Shown: one piece after another, positions 5,137-49,397 of the stretch
Layout: each line of letters opens with the position of its first letter
Numbering within the stretch: the stretch's first letter is position 1
NCBI GenBank assembly: GCA_034112165.1
Contig: JAWUVV010000052.1
Span: 1 to 53,320 of the forward strand
Source: Candidatus Altimarinota bacterium
GTDB lineage: Bacteria; Patescibacteriota; Gracilibacteria; BD1-5; UBA6164
Direction: 5' to 3'
DNA length: 53,320 nucleotides
The notes under the pieces: model-generated
What the model was told of the DNA's origin: nothing
The model's input: only the letters and a program-made list of their open reading frames with translations
Database searches by the model: none
Program-made: the position numbers and the translations under genes

Positions 5137-5143
5137 AAAAGAC

Positions 5144-5191
5144 CGATAATAAAGTAGGGAACGCAGATCTGCGTTCCCTACTTTATTATCG
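5144..5191. terminator. 48-nt perfect palindrome (24-bp arms, AGATCT centre) downstream of pilC
   Basis: CGATAATAAAGTAGGGAACGCAGA|TCTGCGTTCCCTACTTTATTATCG was checked base by base. The arm GTTCCCTACTTTA is repeated once more directly at 5191-5204, followed by CCGGTCTC. Confidence 0.6.
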
Positions 5192-5226
5192 TTCCCTACT
5201 TTAATTACCGGTCTCAGTTTTTAAGC

Positions 5227-6405
5227 TTAACTTTGAGAAACAGTATCAGCCAAGTTCATAATAGGCTGCATGATGGCAATTGCGATAAATCATACAACGA
5301 CCGCTAGAAAGACTATAATAAATGGTTCTAAAAGCTTATTAATCGTTGCTGCCATATTGTCTACCTGTTCATCGTAGAAGTCAGCAACCTTAATAATAAC
5401 AGTGTCTAACTTGGCTGACTGTTCTCATACCTGAATCATCTGCACCATAATGTCTGGAAAAAGGGGGTCTCACTCCAAAGATTCCCACATTTTCATACCC
5501 TGACGAACATCTTCAAGTAGCAGTAAGATTCTTTGCCTGTACACCTCGTTTCACACCGCGTCAGAAACTATCTTGAGTGATTCAACTACTGATACTCATG
5601 ATCACATAAGTCCTGAGAAAACTCGAGAAAACTTTGATAATACAACCTTTTGAGTAATAGCGCCGAAAATTGGGATTTTTAATATCAATTTATCAAAATT
5701 ATATTTTCAAGTTGGGGTATTCTTCCAAAGTAATATAGAAACATACCCAGCAATGACTGTGAATATCATAAGATACCAATAGTTCACAAAAATATCCGAC
5801 ATAAATATAAGAGCCTTTGTAGTACTTGGGAGAGCCGATTTATCTTCGAATATTTCCAAGAGGTTTGGTACGACTACTATCATCATCACTGCAATAACCC
5901 CAACAACAACTAACATAATCATCGCTGGATAGATAAGCGCTGATTTCATCTTTCATGAAACAGATGCCATTTTTTCTACTTGATCAGCCAATCACGTTAA
6001 TACTTCATTGAGTTTTCAGGTTTTTTCACCAGCTCTAATAACTCCAATTTCTGACTCTATAAATGAATTTGGGTACCTATCCATACATTCAGATAGGTTC
6101 TTTCACTCCTTTAATGAGACCAGCATTTCTCATAGTATTTTTTTAAATGCGACGTTTTTTTCTTGTTTTTCTAGCACAGCAATTCACTTTATAAGAGACA
6201 TACCTGCGTTGAGCATAGTAGACATAAGTCTATAAAAAATGATTTTTTCCCGTACCTTTATTTTTTGAAACCCTGCAAATATATCATTGAGACGCCCCAT
6301 AAAATCCTTTTTCTCTTCAGATTTTTTACCGCTATTTAATAGAGCGTCATCAGAGACAATTCCCGTCTTTCCCTCCTCTTCTCATAATATAATTATATCC
6401 TCCAT
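5227..6405 (-). CDS. pilC: Type IV pilus / T2SS platform protein (GspF/PilC family), 392 aa
   Basis: Code-25 translation gives two T2SSF-type repeats. The typical C-terminus is LLEPFIIVFLAVVV[TGA=G]FIAIAIMQPIMNL. There are 3 TM segments and about 13 in-frame TGA. Confidence 0.9.
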
Positions 6406-6425
6406 AATAATGGTTTACTACTAAA

Positions 6426-7697
6426 TTACTCCTCGTTTTGTGTTTTAGAAACTCTGTACACCTCCTCAAGAGTGGTTTGTCATTGCAGGGCTTTTATAAT
6501 ACCGTCTTGCTCTAAGGAAATCATTCCATCCTTAATTGCTTGCCTGTTGATATTAAATGCTGAATCACCTCTTAGAATCATATCTTTTACTCAAGGGCTA
6601 ATTTCTAGCATCTCATACATACCTACTCGACCTTTATATCCATTTCATTGACACACATCACATCAAACTGCTTTGTAAAACATTGGTGATTTCATTTTTT
6701 CTGCTCCAACCCTATCAAGCAACTCTTCTTTCGGAGTAACAGATAATGCGTGCTTTATATTCTGAAGTGTCGTCTTATCTATTTCACTCAGTGGTCTTAC
6801 TACTTTACATTCATCACATACTCGTTTCACAAGTCTCTGAGCAATAATAATATTAAGTGACGCTGGAATCAGAAATGGTTGTACTCACATATTTAGTATC
6901 CTCGTAATGGTTTCAGCTGCATTATTTGTATGGATGGTCGACAGCACTAAATGTCATGTCAAAGATGCTTCGATGGCTATATCTACGGTTTCTTTATCAC
7001 GCATCTCTCATACCATAATAATATCTGGATCTTGTCGCAGCGCGGTTCTTAGTCCATTTGCAAAGGTATATCAAATACCAGGCTTTACTTGACTCTGACT
7101 AATACCGTCTACTTGATTCTCGACAGGATCTTCCAGCGTCATGATATTAACGTCAGGAGCATTGAGCATGGTAAGTATAGAATAGAGGGTTGTTGATTTA
7201 CCAGAACCAGTAGGTCAGCTCGTGAGAATAACTCCATTAGGAAGGCCGATTGCCTTTTCTAAAAGTCTTTTATTTTTTCACTCTATTCCAAGCATTCATA
7301 GCTCAGGAATCTTTTTACTTTTATCTACGATACGCATAACTATCTTCTCTCAATGAACCGTTGGTAGGGTAGAGACGCGGAGATCTAATGGCTTTCAAAG
7401 TATCGTTTGAGAAATACGTCCATCTTGAGGGACTCTAGATTCATCAATTTTTAGTTCTGAAAGTATTTTAAATCTTGCAATAATACCAGAATGAAGAAAG
7501 GATTGATACTCTAATATTTCCTTTAGTTCCCCATCAACTCTATATCGCAGTCTTACAAAGGAACTCAGAGGTTCAACGTGTATATCTGATGCGTCTCATA
7601 GCACTGCGGCAAGAATAATCATATCACAGATCTTCTGTATATTGTCTCACTTATAGACCAGGGTTTTTAACTCTTCTAGTATTGATGTGTAATCCAT
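6426..7697 (-). CDS. pilB: PilB/GspE-family assembly ATPase, short form (423 aa)
   Basis: Supporting motifs:
- Walker A LTS[TGA=G]PTGSGKST;
- the VHGEKIVMRI and [15 protein letters not shown] boxes;
- the tetracysteine motif CDEC...CDVCQG typical of PilB/GspE rather than PilT.
The long N-terminal GSPII domain is absent. Confidence 0.9.
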
Positions 7698-7700
7698 ATT

Positions 7701-9005
7701 TTATTTTATAAGTATTTTCATCTGCTGCTCATAGGCTTTATTAATTTTTTCTAACTGCTTATTGTACTGCGTAGCACTATCAAAAGTCTCCTCAATCTTA
7801 TCACCTTTAGCGCTTTCTTTTCGTAAAGTAGTAATATCTTTCTCTAGGGCTAAAACGAGTGTTTCCAGGTTTTGCAAAGTTTGTATAGCAGTCAGCTCTA
7901 TTGAATTTGAGTACTTATACCTTTGGCTTAGGAACTTTTGAGTGTTGCTTTGTAATAATGCTGAGAAACTTGTATATTTTTCAAGTAACTTATTAATATA
8001 TGCTTGCATTTTATATCCAGGAACTCCCGCTACATAAAACTGCAACTCAACATCCATTTCGTACTTTTCTTTTCATTGCAAAGTTTTCATTGCAAATATA
8101 AGGGAATCCGTTGTTTTTACCGATGAATTAGGGTATTCATTCAGACTCAAGGATACAATATCTGCCAGCTGATTCTCATATATATTATAATCTCAAGAAC
8201 TTTCTGATCATTCAATACGTTTACTTATGAAATTATCATTTGGAACTACAAATCACTCATCAGATATTGTAATTTGCGCAACATTTTCAAAATAATGGAG
8301 AAAGTCTACCATGTCTGATTTTCTTCAAACAAGACTAAATGAAAGTGGAATAGCGAAAATATTTTCTTCAAGTAGATCAGCTGGTCATGAAGTATTGTCT
8401 ATTTCTTCTTTGTCTACATTAATAATATCTCAAACTCAGATATCTCCCTCATAACTCAGGTTAAAACTATAGAGGAGATTCTCTATATAATTAATAAAGT
8501 AAAAGTCTGTGAGCGTACTATTTTCACTATTTTTATCTTCTTCACTCACTTCATCTCAGAATATCGTATCTCCTGATGAATTGTTTCAGTTATAAGTAGG
8601 AAGAAAGACATTTAAATTCTTATCTTTTTCTAGAAATTCCTCAGATTTTTTTATGTTTGATATATCTTCCCTCACGCTATCAAGAAATGCAATATATTGA
8701 ATAGATCCAGTATTAGTAAAGTGTGCCTCGTAAAAATCCTCAGTAACATTTTTTAACAACACCCTTGTATAATCAGTCTCATCTCAAGAAAAGAAATAAT
8801 CCTTCACCTCACTATACGCTAATCATTGTATAAGAGTCGTATTATACTTATCATATATCCTTCATAGCTCTTGTTTTTTGATTTCTATTTCGCTCATCTT
8901 AGGATATGCAAATATAGCAAATACTCATAAAAGTATGAGGAAAAAAATTCCACTAAATATTACAGATTGTATGATTCATTTTTTTATTCTTTTTGTAAGT
9001 TTCAT
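7701..9005 (-). CDS. Hypothetical membrane-anchored protein (434 aa) in the pilus operon
   Basis: ATG at 9005. N-terminal TM helix (IIQSVIFSGIFFLILL) and a C-terminal coiled coil. Its stop lies 3 nt before the pilB ATG. The reading is continuous only with TGA = Gly. Confidence 0.6.
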
Positions 9006-29610: not shown

Positions 29611-31002
29611 ATGAAAATAGCATTTTTTGGAACTCCAGAGTTTGCTTGAGAGATACTCTCATGAATCCTCTCCCTCAATCCCTCTCCAAGAGAGGGAAGT
29701 AGCTTCATAGATATAGCTCTTGTTGTTTCACAGCCAGATAAACCAATAGGAAGAAAGAGAGAACTCCTTCCAACTCCAGTCAGGCAAGTCTCTCTTGACG
29801 CTGGAATACAGGTGATGCAGCCAGATAAAATTAAGAGAAACACTCAGTTTCATGATAGTCTCAGAGATTTAAATTTAGACTTTATTGTCGTAGTAGCATA
29901 TTGAAAAATTATTCCACAAGCTATTTTAGATATTCCAAAGCATGGCTGTGTAAATATTCATGGGAGTATCCTTCCAAAATATCGAGGAGCAAGTCCAGTA
30001 CAGGCAGCAATAAAGTCTGGAGACAGTGAGACATGATTGACAACAATGTATATGTCTGCTGGCATGGATGAATGAGATATCCTTAAAATAGCCAGAGTTG
30101 AGATAGACAATATGGACACGAGTGAAGATATATTCAAAAAATTTGTACACATTGGACCTGAGCTCTTAGTAGAGACTCTCAGAGAAATTATGTCGGGAGA
30201 TTTACAGTGAACTCCTCAAGATAACTCTAAGTCTACAAAATGTGGAAAAATTTCTCGCGAAGATGGAGAAGTGTTTTTTGCTCAGCAGAGTTCAGGAGAA
30301 ATATATAATACTTTTAGAGCCTATACTCCTTGGCCTGGAATTTATACTTGGTATGATGGAAAGAGATTGGTGCTTGAAGAAATATCTTCTTACATAAAAC
30401 CTCACCTCTGAATTTCCTCTCCTCAAGGAGAGGAGGGCTACAGTATAAGGCAATGATATGCAGTCGTTCCTGAATATGTAAAAGAACTTTCTAAAAACCT
30501 GCGCCTAGATCAAACAGATTCTGAGGAAATAGCTTGGGAACTGCTGCGAAATAGAAAATTTCATAATTTAAATTTTCGTCGACAGCATGCTATTGGTAGA
30601 TACATTGCTGATTTTTATTGTGATGAAAAAAAGATTGTCATTGAATTAGATGGAAAAGTTCATGAAAATAGGAAAGAATATGATGAAATACGAGATGAAT
30701 CCATTTCTTCTCATAATATTCATGTTATTCGTATTCCCAATGAAGATATCGGAAAAATATATCAAATTATTTATACAAAATTATGTAGCCTCTCTCTCCT
30801 CTGAGGAGAGAGAATTCAAGAGTGAGGTTTTGTGTGAGAACTATGAGAATTCATCAAGCTCTCAAAAAACAGATATGGAATAATATGCGCTCACAATAAA
30901 ATTCTCGAGATTACGCGGGTAAAACTCGAGGGAAAGAAATCTATGGATGTTACGTCATTTGTGAATGGGAATAGAGAGGTAGTTTGATATTGTTTTCAAT
31001 AA
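29611..31002 (+). CDS. fmt: Methionyl-tRNA formyltransferase carrying two in-frame element insertions (463 aa vs ~310 typical)
   Basis: [38 protein letters not shown] and YTPWPGIYT motifs. The C-terminal domain resumes after the insert ([37 protein letters not shown]). Every codon from 29611 to 31002 was checked, and the only stop is TAA at 31000. Confidence 0.85.
29662..29703 (+). repeat. Solo GC-rich hairpin element (left-end type) in frame in the fmt N-terminus
   Basis: TGAATCCTCTCC...TCCCTCTC-CAA-GAGAGGGA. It encodes [12 protein letters not shown]. The GTP-to-QPD spacing is about 9 aa longer than in E. coli Fmt. Confidence 0.5.
30400..30827 (+). mobile_element. TIR/hairpin-bounded element carrying a DUF559 (Vsr-like PD-(D/E)XK) endonuclease module, in frame within fmt
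   Basis: - Left end: CCTCACCTCTGAATTTCCTCTCCTCAAGGAGAGGAGGGCT.
- Reverse complement of the right end: CCTCACTCTTGAATTCTCTCTCCTCAGAGGAGAGAGAGGCT, about 80% identical over ~40 nt; each end contains a hairpin.
- Interior: [73 protein letters not shown]. Confidence 0.6.
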
Positions 31003-31154: not shown

Positions 31155-31249
31155 CTCTTACCTGAATCCTTACTCTTTACAAGAGCAAGGGGCTACAAAG
31201 TATACATACAGCCTCTTTCCCTTGAAAAGGGAGAGAATTCAAGAGAGAG
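31155..31249 (+). mobile_element. Miniature ORF-less copy of the same element (left and right ends separated by 6 nt)
   Basis: CTCTTACCTGAATCCTTACTCTTTACAAGAGCAAGGGGCTACAAAGTATA + ACATAC + AGCCTCTTTCCCTTGAAAAGGGAGAGAATTCAAGAGAGAG. It ends 3 nt before the ATG at 31253. Confidence 0.55.
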
Positions 31250-31252
31250 TTT

Positions 31253-35864: not shown

Positions 35865-35890
35865 TAAACATATATTGACTTTAAACACAT

Positions 35891-35942
35891 AAGTCCGGTC
35901 TCAAGTACACTTCTTAGTAACTTGAGACCGGACTTGTTTTTT
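35891..35942 (+). terminator. Strong rho-independent terminator after fusA
   Basis: 16-bp stem AAGTCCGGTCTCAAGT/ACTTGAGACCGGACTT followed by a T-run. The stem contains the CCGGTCTC/GAGACCGG motif. Confidence 0.85.
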
Positions 35943-36339
35943 GCAGCTTGATATATAAAACTTGTATTAATTATCTTTCCATATAGCCCATGATTTTTTC
36001 ATTCACCATCTTTTCTTCATTCCATAAAATCCCATATACACTGAGTTTTTTCTTTGAATAACTTCCAATCTCTTTAAAAATTCATACAATAAAAGTGCTA
36101 GTTTGGAATCTGGCAAAAATGTCCTCAAAAAAATCTAAAAACTTGGCTTTAAAAGCCAACTTCAATTAAAATACTTTATTTTTATCACCTATATATTTTT
36201 TAAAAATATAATACATTATTAGTTAGTTTTTATGATAAATATAGTATATTTGTCTACATGAAATTAGCTTTATCCGTATAAATATAAAGTAAGAGACAAG
36301 ATTTTTTAAGTACTATTTACTTAAATAAAAAAGAAAAAC

Positions 36340-44742: not shown

Positions 44743-45021
44743 ATGATAGAAATTTCAACATTAGAACTTCTGCAGCTTGTAGCTACCTTTTTCCTTATTG
44801 TCATCGGGACACTTCTTAGTCTTGCACTTTTGAAACTCAATAAAATTCTGAAAATGTGAGTTGAGCTCGTAGGCTACTATGAAAATATGAAACAATTAAT
44901 TATCTATTATTCTATGGTCCCGTATGTTATCAAGGATAAAATATTTGAATTTATAGCAAACCTCTCCGAATCCTCTCCTCAAGGAGAGGTGGAATCACAA
45001 GAAAGTTCTACTGAAAAGTAG
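44743..45021 (+). CDS. Small membrane protein (92 aa) with hairpin-element-derived C-terminus
   Basis: One TM helix (LVATFFLIVIGTLLSLALL). The C-terminal ..NLSESSPQGEVESQ.. is encoded by the repeat at 44961-44992. Confidence 0.45.
44961..44992 (+). repeat. Solo left-end-type hairpin element
   Basis: CCTCTCCGAATCCTCTCCTCAAGGAGAGGTGG. Compare the fmt element's left end, CCTCACCTCTGAATTTCCTCTCCTCAAGGAGAGGAGG. Confidence 0.5.
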
Positions 45022-45077: not shown

Positions 45078-46958
45078 ATGTCTCAAAAAATAATTACACT
45101 TTCGAAACAACTTGCCAACCAAATAGCAGCTGGGGAGGTTGTGGAGCGACCACTCTCAGTAGTGAAAGAGCTAGTAGAGAACTCACTTGATGCTGGAGCT
45201 ACAAAGCTCGAGATTTATTTAAAAAATGGTGGAATTGATGAGATTATCGTAAAAGATAATGGTCAGTGAATTCCTTGAGATCAATTGATCCTGGCTCTTG
45301 AGAAATACTCAACTTCAAAAATTCAAAGTATAGAGGACCTATATAAAGTGATGACTTTTGGTTTCAGGGGAGAGGCTCTTGCGAGTATTGCCTCAGTGAG
45401 TGAGTTTTCTATTAGTTCAAAAACTGCTGATTGTAAAAATGCCAAGCAAGTGATAAGTGAGGGAGGAGAAAATATTTCTGAGCAAATAATAGCCCATGAA
45501 ATAGGGACAAGCGTTAAAGTATCAAAATTGTTTTTTAATACTCCAGCAAGACTTGCGTACCTGAAAAAACCGAGAACGGAGTATCTTAAAATTCAAGAAT
45601 TTATTCAAAAAATAGCACTTATTTATCCAAATGTATGACTGAGCTTACATCATGATGATAAAGGAGTCTATAATTTCCCAGTAGGACAAAGTATCCAGGA
45701 ACGTATTTATGAGATATTTGGAGGAGAGTTTTCAGAAAATATGAGAATACTTTCTCACGAATTCTCATGAATAAAGGTTTCTTGATATATTACAGACCCT
45801 AAAATTTCTTTTAAAAATAAAAATCGGCAACTCTTATATGTAAATAAGAGAGTCATATGATCTCCTATGATTTCAAAGGCTATTTATGATGCGTATAATA
45901 GGTTTATTCCTCATGGAAACCAACCTGGATATATTCTCTCTATTGATATTGATCCAACTCAGGTTGATGTCAATGTGCATCCAAGAAAAATGGAAGTGAG
46001 ATTTGCGTGAGAAGCAACAATATTTCGATCTGTATATCATGGTATCAAGGATGAACTTGAAAGAGTGAGCTTAGTAGGTAATCCCCTAGTTTCTGTAAGC
46101 CCTCACTCTTGAATTCTCTCTCCCTTGGGGGAGAAAGAGGCTGCAAAAGAAACTCCCCTCTCCTCCAAAGGAGAGGGGCTGGGGGTGAGGGAGCAGTATT
46201 ATACAGGTTCATGAACTAAATTTAAAAATTATTCTCCCTATAAAAATACGGGTAGTAATCCATCGCAGGCTTCTATAGATTTTAGTAGAGAAATACTAGG
46301 GAATAACAATGCAGCTTCATCTCTCCTGGCAGGAGAGAATTGAGAGAGGTCTTATCAGGAAAACACTGGAAGTAATCTCTGAGACCTACGAGAGACACCA
46401 CTATGACGAATAGTAGGACAGGTTCATAACTCATACATAGTAGTTCAAACAGATACTGGTCTACAGATACTTGATCAACATGCTCTCGCAGAGCGCGTTA
46501 TATATGAGAAACTCGCAAATGCTTCTTATGCTCCACAAATCCAATGACTTCTATGAGGGATTGGAATGCATCTCATAGTAAATGAGTTAGAGGTGCTTGA
46601 AACATATTTGCAAGATTTTGAAAATATGGGTTTTGAAATCGAGATACTTTCAAATAGTAATATATTGATATCTAGTATTCCTGATTTTATGTCAGGGCAA
46701 AATATAGAAAAATCTTTTCAAAAAATACTATCAGATATCTCATGAGTGTGATCTACATGACTGGAAGAAATTCGTCATAAAATATGGGCGTATACCGCGT
46801 GTCGCTCAGCTGTTAAGTTTTGAGACTCACTGAGTATATTTGAAATAAATAAACTCTTACATGATGCAGCTATAGACTACAGCGCGACATGTCCACATGG
46901 ACGACCTGTTGTGTATGACATAAGCTTAGAAGAATTATTAGGAAAATATGAGAGGTAA
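45078..46958 (+). CDS. mutL: DNA mismatch repair protein MutL (626 aa) with element insertion in the linker
   Basis: [37 protein letters not shown], and the C-terminal [11 protein letters not shown] and ACRSAVKF[TGA]D motifs. Confidence 0.9.
46100..46191. mobile_element. Miniature hairpin element in frame in the mutL inter-domain linker
   Basis: CCCTCACTCTTGAATTCTCTCTCCCTTGGGGGAGAAAGAGGCT ... CCCCTCTCCTCCAAAGGAGAGGGGCTGGGGGTGAGGG. The first 23 nt are identical to the reverse complement of the fmt element's right end. It encodes [31 protein letters not shown]. Confidence 0.55.
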
Positions 46959-49352: not shown

Positions 49353-49397
49353 CACTCACCCCCAGCCCCTCTCTTTACACGAGAAGGGAGCAGGCTA
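49353..49397. repeat. Solo GC-rich hairpin element just upstream of the pilin operon
   Basis: CACTCACCCCCAGCCCCTCTCTTTACACGAGAAGGGAGCAGGCTAC. CTCACCCCCAGCCCC is the reverse complement of GGGGCTGGGGGTGAG in the mutL copy. Confidence 0.45.

Follow-up and report, generated by a model that had tools for sequence, protein, structure and literature searches.

A two-hairpin block in the MutL linker

The window analysed here is a 53,320-nt stretch of DNA from Candidatus Altimarinota bacterium, a member of the Gracilibacteria. Translation with tables 25 or 4 gives four times the ORF space in this window; TGA is a sense codon, and TGA codons stand where the GFRGEAL motif of MutL has its universally conserved Gly. 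The window as a whole is 33% GC, with the block in mutL forming a GC island. It contains no tRNA or tmRNA genes, and thus no tRNA-linked integration. The mutL gene and the repeat units in and around it are arranged as follows:

45078-46958, + strand: mutL CDS, 626 aa in code 25, with endonuclease and dimerisation motifs intact
46100-46191, + strand: two-ended miniature element in the mutL linker; at the same site in orthologues L001 and L002, and included in the family alignment
46100-46138, + strand: left unit ("type 1"), with third strand CCCTCACTCT, spacer TGAAT, arm TCTCTCTCCC, loop TTGG and arm GGGAGAAAGA
46155-46191, - strand: right unit, of canonical BoxC/TM form when compared with the E. 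coli TM consensus; minus strand CCCTCACCCC-CAG-CCCCTCTCCT-TTGG-AGGAGAGGGG
46319-46350, - strand: second, solo unit in the mutL linker, in frame
44961-44990, + strand: solo intergenic unit, ~90 nt upstream of mutL, conserved in L001

A preliminary description had reported a ~92-nt GC-rich block with two hairpins at 46100-46191, translated as 31 residues without a break in the frame. The block, CCCTCACTCTTGAATTCTCTCTCCCTTGGGGGAGAAAGAGGCTGCAAAAGAAACTCCCCTCTCCTCCAAAGGAGAGGGGCTGGGGGTGAGGG, is real and is read through as described under code 25. Its strict unit, CCTCAC...GTGAGG, can be refined to 46101-46190, which is 90 nt, a multiple of three and exactly 30 codons (P342-R371), and which begins at a codon boundary. 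The Pfam domains of MutL are HATPase (aa 24-132), DNA_mis_repair (210-327) and MutL_C (446-585), and the block (aa 341-372) occupies the linker between the last two, the location originally given. Across its six frames the element contains neither TAA nor TAG. TGA is present in three of them, including the translated frame, where it is read as Gly at 46110-46112 within the left unit; this copy is therefore readable only where TGA means Gly.

Folded as RNA together with its flanks, the block reaches -55.2 kcal/mol (z = -3.45), a stability that none of 200 shuffles attains. No Rfam family matches the whole window at gathering thresholds, and a permissive search of 45950-46450 returns only generic hairpins below threshold (mir-2366, 31.5 bits where the threshold is 68; whalefall-1, 18.8 bits where it is 37), so that no known RNA family fits the block. 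A promoter and terminator scan of 45900-46500 finds no feature on the sense strand and terminator-like matches on the antisense strand only.

The block has a partner within the window. The 23-mer CCTCACTCTTGAATTCTCTCTCC occurs there exactly twice, at 46101-46123 (+) and at 30805-30827 (-), and the number of matches expected by chance is 0, even with 3 mismatches allowed. The second copy is the right end of an insert in fmt, an identity that had been noticed before; the similarity to the fmt ends persists under alignment and widens to a whole family.

BoxC/PIT/TM units and a DUF559 cassette in fmt

Each half of the mutL element is built as CCTCACCCC-spacer-CCCCTCTCC-loop-GGAGAGGGG, the architecture of repeats described as BoxC, PIT (potential intrastrand triplex) or "intrastrand triplex motif" (TM). 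Both halves, like all other units in the window, consist of a pyrimidine and a purine arm that pair over 7-10 bp around a 3-7-nt loop. A mirror third segment (GGGTGAGGG / CCCTCACCC), separated by a short spacer, is present as well, with 9/10 mirror matches at 46115 and 8/10 at 46178(-). Units were found by a custom hairpin-plus-mirror scan with shuffle controls; a covariance model of the unit was dropped because MAFFT alignment put the hairpins in inconsistent register. The scan detects the mirror third strand in 238 of 489 pyrimidine hairpins, compared with 34 in the shuffled control. In the window it finds eleven units between 29.6 and 49.4 kb, whereas shuffled sequence yields weak matches only. 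In a set of units chosen beforehand for mirror symmetry, arms with a variant sequence are accompanied by third strands with the corresponding variant.

The right half of the mutL element, CCCCTCTCC-TCCAAA-GGAGAGGGG-CTG-GGGGTGAGGG, matches the consensus CCCTCTCCC..GGGAGAGGG..GGGTGAGGG (Table 1 of PMC4666352), and the left half is an AT-richer variant of the BoxC/TM consensus. Judged by its sequence, then, the repeat unit belongs to the BoxC/PIT/TM family. The initial suggestion of a family analogous to the Rickettsia palindromic elements but new to code-25 CPR genomes therefore stands for the in-frame behaviour and falls for the novelty of the family. The checks put forward with that suggestion all turned out in its favour.

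BoxC/PIT/TM repeats have gone unexplained for about 30 years. Holder et al. (2015, PMC4666352) list them for E. coli and for over 260 bacterial genomes. In E. coli the triplex motif is described as always intergenic, with neither a link to mobile elements nor a function, and the formation of an intrastrand triplex by single-stranded DNA has been shown only in vitro, for the E. coli sequence (PMC4666352). The units described here have a near-identical consensus, CCCTCTCCC-loop-GGGAGAGGG with a 3-nt spacer and the mirror repeat GGGTGAGGG. They are likewise multi-copy and dispersed, occur singly or as inverted pairs, and have conserved stems and variable loops. Unlike the E. coli repeats as described, however, they are located within ORFs and translated as part of them, a cassette encoding a DUF559 domain has them as its ends, and one of their end types is AT-richer, CCTCAC-TCTTGAATTC-TCTCTCC. 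The cassette and the remaining units in the window are:

29611-31002, + strand: fmt CDS, 463 aa with inserts (312-317 aa in empty orthologues)
29668-29698, + strand: solo unit in frame near the Fmt N-terminus, in some orthologues only
30400-30827, + strand: full-length cassette in fmt, in the fmt frame throughout, with the DUF559 ORF between a left and a right end; in-frame TGA at 30823-30825 (..ERIQEGGF..) of the right end
30400-30436, + strand: cassette left end, CCTCACCTCT-GAA-TTTCCTCTCC-TCAA-GGAGAGGAGG
30478-30756, + strand: DUF559 (PF04480) domain (Pfam E 3.4e-28), predicted Vsr-like PD-(D/E)XK fold with structure matches to 3HRL and 3R3P
30789-30827, - strand: cassette right end (type 1), with the 23-mer identical to the left end of the mutL element
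31155-31250, no strand assigned: decayed two-ended element, ending 2 nt short of the ATG with which the next gene starts (31253)
49355-49388, + strand: solo unit 14 nt upstream of the start of a pilin-like gene (49341, minus strand)

The fmt insert is more than a longer repeat: besides sharing an end with the mutL block, it is a cassette with a DUF559 ORF in the fmt frame. The start of the DUF559 domain has no in-frame ATG, so the domain is expressed solely as part of Fmt. Pfam finds DUF559 alone in the 159-aa insert segment. Foldseek matches the modelled DUF559 fold to 3HRL (TM 0.66/0.75) and to 3R3P (0.59/0.65), the homing endonuclease I-Bth0305I. A sequence search of the PDB with DUF559 returns 3HRL as the sole match, and an alignment of DUF559 domains that includes the window copy has 18 invariant columns. 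On the modelled structure, DUF559 is predicted to be a Vsr-like PD-(D/E)XK nuclease with a fold related to I-Bth0305I. The mutL block, in turn, appears to be a nuclease-less derivative or relative of the fmt cassette.

Age, constraint and mobility of the elements

The MutL orthologues differ at this site: L001 and L002 have the element, L005 and L003 a half-decayed one, and L004, L006 and several others none. The corresponding linker piece is 21-25 aa without the element and 40 aa with it. Closer orthologues, at 75-77% identity, lack the element or retain a decayed remnant. This distribution, shared by three lineages and decayed or absent elsewhere, marks the mutL copy as old; it would have been gained before the split of at least three lineages. 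Across these three, synonymous divergence is nearly saturated, yet third-codon identity is 0.90 within the element versus about 0.5 over the remainder of the gene (Fisher p = 4e-5 and 1e-6). The ends of the fmt cassette behave similarly (0.92-1.00 versus 0.55-0.67). Thus, element ends are conserved far above synonymous sites. The disordered MutL linker may tolerate the element harmlessly, the arms being held by a constraint on nucleic acid rather than on protein. Recent transposition was considered as the source of the 23-nt identity between mutL and fmt and was rejected: the identical 23-mer is found in L002 mutL and in L090 fmt, so the identity reflects constraint on the consensus. Most copies in this clade look old and vertically inherited.

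Constraint of this kind could also mean that the mutL block is now domesticated and no longer mobile, with its mRNA or DNA structure slowing translation or transcription between the domains, or with its peptide selected as a flexible linker. Such a role would suit the retention of one site in three lineages at the third-position identity just given, as well as the strong predicted structure, the position exactly between MutL domains and the intergenic copies that abut start codons. However, the closer orthologues that lack the element or keep remnants show that it is dispensable, the equal over-conservation of the fmt cassette ends makes this a property of the repeat and not of mutL, and the sense strand has no terminator or promoter feature. 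We regard domestication as quite unlikely.

On another explanation, there is no repeat element at all and the block is a convergent Pro/Gly-rich low-complexity linker or an assembly artefact. Polypyrimidine and polypurine tracts are indeed of low complexity, and MutL linkers vary. Nevertheless, an exact 23-nt match is not expected by chance, conservation is focused on synonymous positions, and independent assemblies have the element at the same site. In addition, an alignment of the miniature family is almost invariant over its first 45 nt in 12 copies from different genes. This explanation is ruled out.

The link between the units and DUF559 extends well beyond the window. Inverted repeats of one consensus bracket 65 of 77 DUF559 loci, in lineages ranging from Gracilibacteria to cyanobacteria, Chloroflexota, Zixibacteria and others. 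Unit density is 4.53 per kb within 250 nt of DUF559 and 0.21 per kb elsewhere in the same loci, a 21-fold difference. In E. coli, the DUF559 gene ycjD has a BoxC-like hairpin at its end, with TM#9 170 nt downstream. At several loci DUF559 has units of either orientation around it, or a complete pair on each side, an arrangement that does not fit a simple TIR-ORF-TIR transposon.

All 19 CPR-type loci have DUF559 in frame within a host protein: Fmt, RecG, RecQ, MnmA, an RlmD-like protein, an NMNAT-like protein or LeuRS. The RecG site that follows Walker A is filled in 11 loci, and the RecQ, MnmA, LeuRS and RlmD-like sites are filled as well. The proteins with an in-frame miniature include DnaE, an IleRS-like synthetase, malic enzyme, RecQ, Fmt and a pyruvyl transferase. 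Together, cassette and miniatures occupy fmt, recG, recQ, mnmA, leuS, dnaE, the IleRS-like gene and mutL in Gracilibacteria and relatives. In the CPR loci, 59 of 69 units are inside long ORFs, a departure from the intergenic location described for E. coli.

Comparison of individual copies demonstrates that the element is mobile as a discrete unit. In one MAG, L044 (recG) and L060 (recQ) are 91% identical over the segment from ACCCTCAC to GTGAGGGAAT alone, the similarity breaking off exactly at these ends. Among Fmt orthologues, site C may be empty, hold a miniature or hold the full cassette, and the miniatures of L092 (fmt) and L097 (pyruvyl transferase) are near-identical, spacer included. 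Neither the L044/L060 borders nor the fmt alleles have a visible target-site duplication, and in the fmt alleles the host loop is too variable for the exact empty-site junction to be resolved. Pfam detects no recognised transposase in the cassette, only DUF559 (PF04480).

A different history would make the two-hairpin units primary and independently spreading, with DUF559 homing into their spacer; miniatures would then be empty sites, and the mutL block would never have had a nuclease. The resemblance of the fold to I-Bth0305I is in keeping with such a history, as are the loci with complete units on both sides or with units in opposite orientation, and the 23 units of E. coli beside its one DUF559 gene. 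The L089 miniature has a spacer that runs collinear with what lies immediately within the two ends of the full fmt cassette, a pattern that insertion explains as well as deletion. On the other hand, end asymmetries and loop variants follow the DUF559 lineage across host genes and genomes (L010 recQ versus L012, L016 and L031 recG; window fmt versus L008), L009 and L018, two cassette lineages of one MAG, each have their own end variant, and the L044/L060 similarity takes in the ends before it stops. A Mantel test of end variants against DUF559 lineage gives a modest correlation (r = 0.30, 14/2000 permutations) that is weak for pairs in different host genes (r = 0.16). Homing into pre-existing units is, in our judgement, unlikely.

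We favour the reading, with a probability of roughly 0.7, that the mutL block is a non-autonomous, two-ended miniature of a mobile family with BoxC-type ends, whose full form carries a DUF559 ORF and which inserts in frame in code-25 genes. Each unit combines a pyrimidine/purine hairpin with a "third strand", CCTCAC(CCC), that is a mirror repeat; such units of BoxC/PIT/TM type form the element ends, and the full-length form has the DUF559 ORF between them. DUF559, here within Fmt, may recognise and cut the ends, probably as a structured hairpin or triplex. By analogy with RAYTs and REPs, or with transposases and MITEs, it may drive the copying of full cassettes and, in trans, of miniatures, which would arise through loss of the ORF. 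Arms made of polypyrimidine and polypurine can contain neither TAA nor TAG, and their sole possible stop, TGA, is Gly in code 25. In any frame they yield a flexible peptide, rich in Pro/Ser/Leu and then in Gly/Glu/Arg. For these reasons, net insertions of a multiple of three in loops and linkers would survive. The more general proposal, that BoxC/PIT/TM repeats are the ends and nuclease-less relics of a hitherto unrecognised, phylum-spanning class of mobile elements, moved by DUF559 and colonising genes as translated in-frame cassettes, is tentative, and we hold it at somewhat less than even odds.

Relation to other elements and significance

Rickettsia palindromic elements (RPEs) are a close parallel to the in-frame lifestyle: short palindromic repeats that keep the frame of the intact and often essential genes they occupy in a reduced, AT-rich genome, translated as an extra peptide, with intergenic copies and presence/absence differences among relatives. 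RPEs, however, are another sequence family, the units here have a mirror-repeat third strand, and reading through them requires TGA to mean Gly. Since the consensus here is that of BoxC/TM, no homology to RPEs is claimed. RPEs are not known to have an associated nuclease or autonomous partner. Some copies of intragenic ERIC and RU elements are also in frame inside genes (Delihas 2007, PMC2759123).

In REP/RAYT systems (REPtrons), a nuclease gene in a single or few copies lies between inverted, short GC-rich hairpin repeats, and nuclease-less copies are dispersed singly or in pairs; the 65 bracketed DUF559 loci have this arrangement. RAYT, however, is an HUH/Y1 transposase of the IS200/IS605 type, and DUF559 is modelled as a Vsr-like PD-(D/E)XK fold. 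REPs are extragenic, whereas units in CPR loci are largely inside ORFs; the mobilising role of DUF559 is one that we infer. Like MITEs, the mutL element and other miniatures are short, encode no protein of their own and have terminal inverted repeats in common with a longer partner that does encode one, as seen in the mutL and fmt ends. Unlike MITEs, they have no visible target-site duplication, and the protein of their partner is not a member of any known family of transposases.

Inteins and Vsr-like (EDxHD) homing endonucleases, such as I-Bth0305I and the "fractured genes" family (PMC3239194, PMC2677866), also place a nuclease of related fold in frame at conserved sites (helicase motifs, aminoacyl-tRNA synthetases, a SAM-binding motif), and the same site recurs in diverged genomes. 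The cassette, however, has no intron and no Hint or splicing domain (Pfam finds DUF559 only), and the insert appears to be kept in the mature protein, joined through hairpin-encoded Pro/Gly linkers. In contrast to homing systems, the same cassette lineage occupies non-homologous sites (recG and recQ). In open-access papers and bioRxiv, no paper ties BoxC/PIT/TM repeats to DUF559 or places them in CPR genes. The bracketing of DUF559 by units, the in-frame cassettes and miniatures in conserved genes, and the conservation of ends above synonymous sites appear to be undescribed.

The BoxC/PIT/TM repeats thereby gain a candidate enzyme, DUF559 (YcjD in E. coli), which makes their origin and spread testable in a model organism, and DUF559, a large domain family of unknown function, gains a plausible biological role. 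Core genes of code-25 Gracilibacteria, and to a smaller extent of standard-code phyla, carry both hairpin repeats and an entire nuclease domain in frame (mutL, fmt, recG, recQ, dnaE and aminoacyl-tRNA synthetase genes). Such inserts bear on protein-length inflation, on the annotation of CPR genomes and on the persistence of selfish elements in tiny genomes with little intergenic space. If the proposal is correct, the cassettes would join self-splicing introns and inteins as a third way for a selfish nuclease to reside in an essential gene. The reassignment of TGA to Gly removes the only stop possible in the repeat and, on the same proposal, would explain the abundance of units in Gracilibacteria genes, which suggests a concrete interaction between genetic-code change and mobile-element load.

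A translated repeat in the MutL linker

The mutL gene (45078-46958, 626 aa) contains, at 46100-46191, a stretch of ≥60% GC, of which there are only a few in a window with an overall GC content of 33%. Together with short flanks, the sequence of this block, CCCTCACTCTTGAATTCTCTCTCCCTTGGGGGAGAAAGAGGCTGCAAAAGAAACTCCCCTCTCCTCCAAAGGAGAGGGGCTGGGGGTGAGGG, has a predicted fold of -55.2 kcal/mol (z = -3.45), and none of 200 shuffled sequences folds equally well, as would be expected of the hairpin element in the preliminary description. The end shared with the fmt element is also as described there: the 23-mer CCTCACTCTTGAATTCTCTCTCC is present at only two sites in the window, 46101-46123(+) and, as an exact match at the right end of the fmt element, 30805-30827(-), and the chance expectation is 0 even at 3 mismatches. 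A sub-threshold match to the Rfam metagenomic RNA motif "whalefall-1" (46099-46137; 18.8 bits against a gathering threshold of 37) may be due simply to a GC-rich hairpin repeat of a similar kind.

By Pfam, DNA_mis_repair spans aa 210-327 and MutL_C spans aa 446-585. The block corresponds to aa 341-372 and therefore lies inside the linker between the two domains. Taken strictly as CCTCAC...GTGAGG (46101-46190), the unit begins at a codon boundary and measures 30 codons exactly, and thus the in-frame translation and inter-domain position claimed earlier both stand. TAA and TAG are absent from all six frames of the element; TGA is present in three, including the frame used, where it lies at 46110-46112. 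TGA is read as sense here, since switching to tables 25/4 expands the ORF space of the window from 7,126 codons to 29,194. The presence of TGA in orthologues at the invariant Gly of the MutL GFRGEAL motif fits TGA = Gly, and the right end of the fmt cassette likewise needs this assignment, because GAG-TGA-GGT is read there (..ERIQEGGF..).

The nearest MutL proteins are from Gracilibacteria and are 75-77% identical. Between the conserved ELERVSLV and YYTGSGTKFK, a segment of 40 aa in the window, the linker peptide is also found in P0006 and P0009, with remnants in P0010, P0004, and P0003; several other orthologues have an unrelated 21-25 aa at this site. At the DNA level, the alignment of orthologues reveals presence, decay, and absence, consistent with the insertion originally proposed. 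The loci of P0006 and P0009 (L001 and L002) share the two-hairpin element at the identical position, L005 has only its left half, with a compensatory change in the stem, L003 retains a single hairpin, and L004 and L006 have no recognisable element at the linker site. Because it has been lost in close relatives, the insertion is dispensable; this loss also disfavours a domesticated role for the MutL copy, which is possible but not needed.

In a codon alignment, third-position identity to the window is 27/30 and 28/31 inside the element versus 0.47-0.53 in the N- and C-terminal MutL domains (Fisher p = 4e-5 and 1e-6). The arms are unchanged among the three copies, the loops and spacer vary, and locus-specific features, such as the CCCTTGGGGGAGA hairpin, are held in common. 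From these comparisons we conclude that the insertion is old and vertically inherited, and that its arms are constrained at the level of nucleic acid. Another Gracilibacteria orthologue, P0058 (651 aa), has a different 33-aa insert, SPHSVSTSLQLQDSRASTPSFTCPKGREEATII, in the N-terminal ATPase domain (columns 165-197 of the MutL protein alignment A1), which is possibly another in-frame unit.

BoxC/TM repeats and DUF559 genes

A full-text literature search with the end sequences identified the TM_ECO motif of E. coli, also known as BoxC or PIT, CCCTCTCCC-loop-GGGAGAGGG-TTA/CCG-GGGTGAGGG (Holder et al. 2015, PMC4666352). This motif is present in 23 copies in E. coli K-12, five as inverted pairs, and in >260 genomes, with cyanobacteria very rich in copies; in vitro, it folds into an intrastrand triplex. 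The motif was reported to be always intergenic, with no mobile-element association and no known function, and the paper makes no mention of an endonuclease or DUF559 (PMC4666352). Of the two halves of the MutL element, the right one is a canonical BoxC/TM copy. The left one is a variant, richer in AT, whose third strand CCCTCACTCT and arm TCTCTCTCCC have changed together. Thus, by sequence and architecture the block belongs to BoxC/PIT/TM rather than to a new family, as had been supposed, and, unlike the motif as described in E. coli, it is not intergenic.

Scanning the window for pyrimidine/purine hairpins preceded by a mirror-repeat segment gave eleven good units, all within 29.6-49.4 kb; shuffled sequence gave only 2-8 weak 7-bp hits.

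Repeat units in the window
29668-29698: in frame, fmt N-terminus
30400-30436 and 30789-30827: both ends of the fmt insert
31155-31191 and 31213-31250: decayed pair, ending 2 nt ahead of an ATG
44961-44990: mutL upstream region, conserved in L001
46100-46138 and 46155-46191: two halves of the MutL block
46319-46350: second MutL-linker unit, in frame
49355-49388: ends 14 nt upstream of a start codon

The purine-rich arms (GGGAGAG.., GGGGGTGAG) of the intergenic copies at 31155-31250 and 49355-49388 occupy the expected position of a ribosome-binding site, where they might influence translation initiation. The window also contains an intergenic, near-perfect 27+27-nt palindrome with no spacer (5141-5194; GACCGATAATAAAGTAGGGAACGCAGA / TCTGCGTTCCCTACTTTATTATCGTTC, 96% complementary), which is not related to BoxC-type units. 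GC-rich palindromes based on GAGACCGGTCTC (635-722 and 35870-35956), which include the perfect 16-mer TTGAGACCGGTCTCAA (653-668) and an inverted repeat of 37 nt downstream of the EF-G gene, could represent terminators or another small family of repeats; their match statistics are weak.

Across bacteria, the BoxC/TM family shows physical coupling to genes for DUF559 nucleases. Proteins homologous to the DUF559 of the window often end in ..SPLSSEERGRG or ..PAPLPRGEGS tails that resemble translated hairpins, and among 80 DUF559 loci sampled from reference genomes, 65 of the 77 that were testable have significant inverted repeats on both sides of the ORF. A single consensus, (A)CCTCACCCC, 3-5 nt, CCCCTCTCC-loop-GGAGAGGGG, describes all of these repeats in genomes of 24 to 67% GC (Gracilibacteria, cyanobacteria, Zixibacteria, Chloroflexota, Ignavibacteria, Nitrospirota, Armatimonadota, Bacillota, Planctomycetota, Acidobacteriota, Myxococcota, and Pseudomonadota). 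Within 250 nt of DUF559 there are 4.53 units per kb, versus 0.21 per kb in the rest of these loci. In E. coli K-12, the stop codon of ycjD, the one gene annotated as DUF559 in the region (NC_000913.3 1351204-1351760), falls in the loop of a BoxC-like hairpin, and the published TM#9/BoxC copy lies ~170 nt downstream. Open-access papers and bioRxiv yielded no paper tying BoxC/TM repeats to DUF559 and seemingly no comment on the ycjD-TM#9 adjacency; the repeat was already known, its DUF559 partner apparently not.

In-frame cassettes and miniatures

The fmt insert (30400-30827, 428 nt, inside fmt 29611-31002) carries DUF559 (PF04480, E = 3.4e-28) between its ends. The domain shares the frame of fmt, lacks a start codon of its own, and is embedded in the Fmt C-terminal domain. 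Its AlphaFold model (pLDDT 84) matches both 3HRL, a DUF559 structure, and I-Bth0305I, a Vsr-like homing endonuclease, in the latter case over the catalytic domain; a PD-(D/E)XK survey places Vsr, DUF559, and I-Bth0305I in a single clade (PMC3424549). The next best matches, apicomplexan and ciliate mitochondrial ribosome proteins (9i05, 9g6k, 6z1p), suggest that DUF559-like folds may have been recruited to these ribosomes. Third-position identity at the cassette ends is 0.92-1.00 versus 0.55-0.67, an excess like that of the MutL element.

This one Fmt site exists in three states: empty (312-317 aa), occupied by the DUF559 cassette (415-469 aa; L007, L090, P0287, P0121), or occupied by a miniature, a two-hairpin insert of 25-60 aa in which both cassette ends are preserved, as in P0248 (CCTCACCCTAACCCTCTCC-TCAA-GGAGAG, 34 nt, CCTCTGTCTCC-TTGA-GGAGAGAGAATCCAAGAGTGAGG). 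Two more Fmt sites have polymorphic hairpin inserts. A metagenome scan with the AT-richer type-1 end (matches aligned in A4) found the same miniature, 90-115 nt long, lying in frame within DNA polymerase III alpha, an IleRS-like synthetase, pyruvyl transferase, RecQ (with a full cassette elsewhere in the same gene), Fmt, and an unknown protein, and in malic enzyme a solo unit, PHSGILSPLQEKEAAK, close to the MutL peptide. In that RecQ gene (L103; PDWI01015600.1, ORF 5180-7861), the miniature lies at the DEAH/TATAT site, which holds full cassettes in L010 and L060.

The fmt copy of L092 and the pyruvyl-transferase copy of L097 are near-identical, spacer included. Within one MAG, L044 (recG) and L060 (recQ) are 91% identical over 444 nt, starting at ACCCTCAC and ending at GTGAGGG(G)AAT, with unrelated flanks. 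Since the identity is confined to the unit, copying between non-homologous sites involved the unit as a discrete whole; these borders show no sign of a target-site duplication. Cassettes and miniatures thus act as discrete insertions that are polymorphic for presence and absence.

In code-25 lineages they are also predominantly intragenic and in frame. Under code 25, the DUF559 unit is in frame within a long host ORF at 19/19 Gracilibacteria/Patescibacteria-type loci: Fmt (site identical to the window's), RecG (11 loci, always directly after the Walker-A helix), RecQ (2 loci), MnmA (2 loci), an RlmD-like methyltransferase, an NMNAT-like protein, and LeuRS. In other phyla, which use the standard code, the cassette is in frame at many loci too, in hosts that include DNA methyltransferases, restriction-modification subunits, a BioF-like protein, and a HAD phosphatase; the remainder are free-standing small ORFs. 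In translation, the flanks are always a Pro/Ser/Thr/Leu-rich and then a Gly/Glu/Arg-rich peptide. Cassettes with hairpin-encoded linkers lie in frame in methyltransferase or restriction-modification-subunit hosts, identified from motifs alone, in cyanobacteria, Armatimonadota, Zixibacteria, and others (L014, L017, L022, L024, L026, L040, L048, L079, L085, L034).

Relation of the nuclease to its ends

The block in MutL is a true member of the BoxC/TM family, translated and non-autonomous. Given the analogy with REP/RAYT and MITE/transposase pairs, the nuclease fold, and the phylum-wide conservation of the ends, DUF559 would be responsible for recognising the ends and for driving their copying. 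Miniatures would then be deletion derivatives, and the conserved arms would reflect nuclease recognition or structure-dependent maintenance. End variants (left/right asymmetry, loops) follow the DUF559 lineage across host genes, with modest support (Mantel r = 0.30, 14/2000 permutations). The main rival is that DUF559 homes into two-hairpin units already present, which is favoured by the heterogeneous orientation of the units around it.

The organisation is like that of REPtrons with a different nuclease, and target choice is like that of inteins with no splicing domain. The MutL element behaves as Rickettsia palindromic elements do, so that the comparison first drawn with them holds for behaviour. 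The DUF559-plus-BoxC cassette may represent a class of mobile element not yet described, to which we assign a probability a little short of one half (about 0.45).
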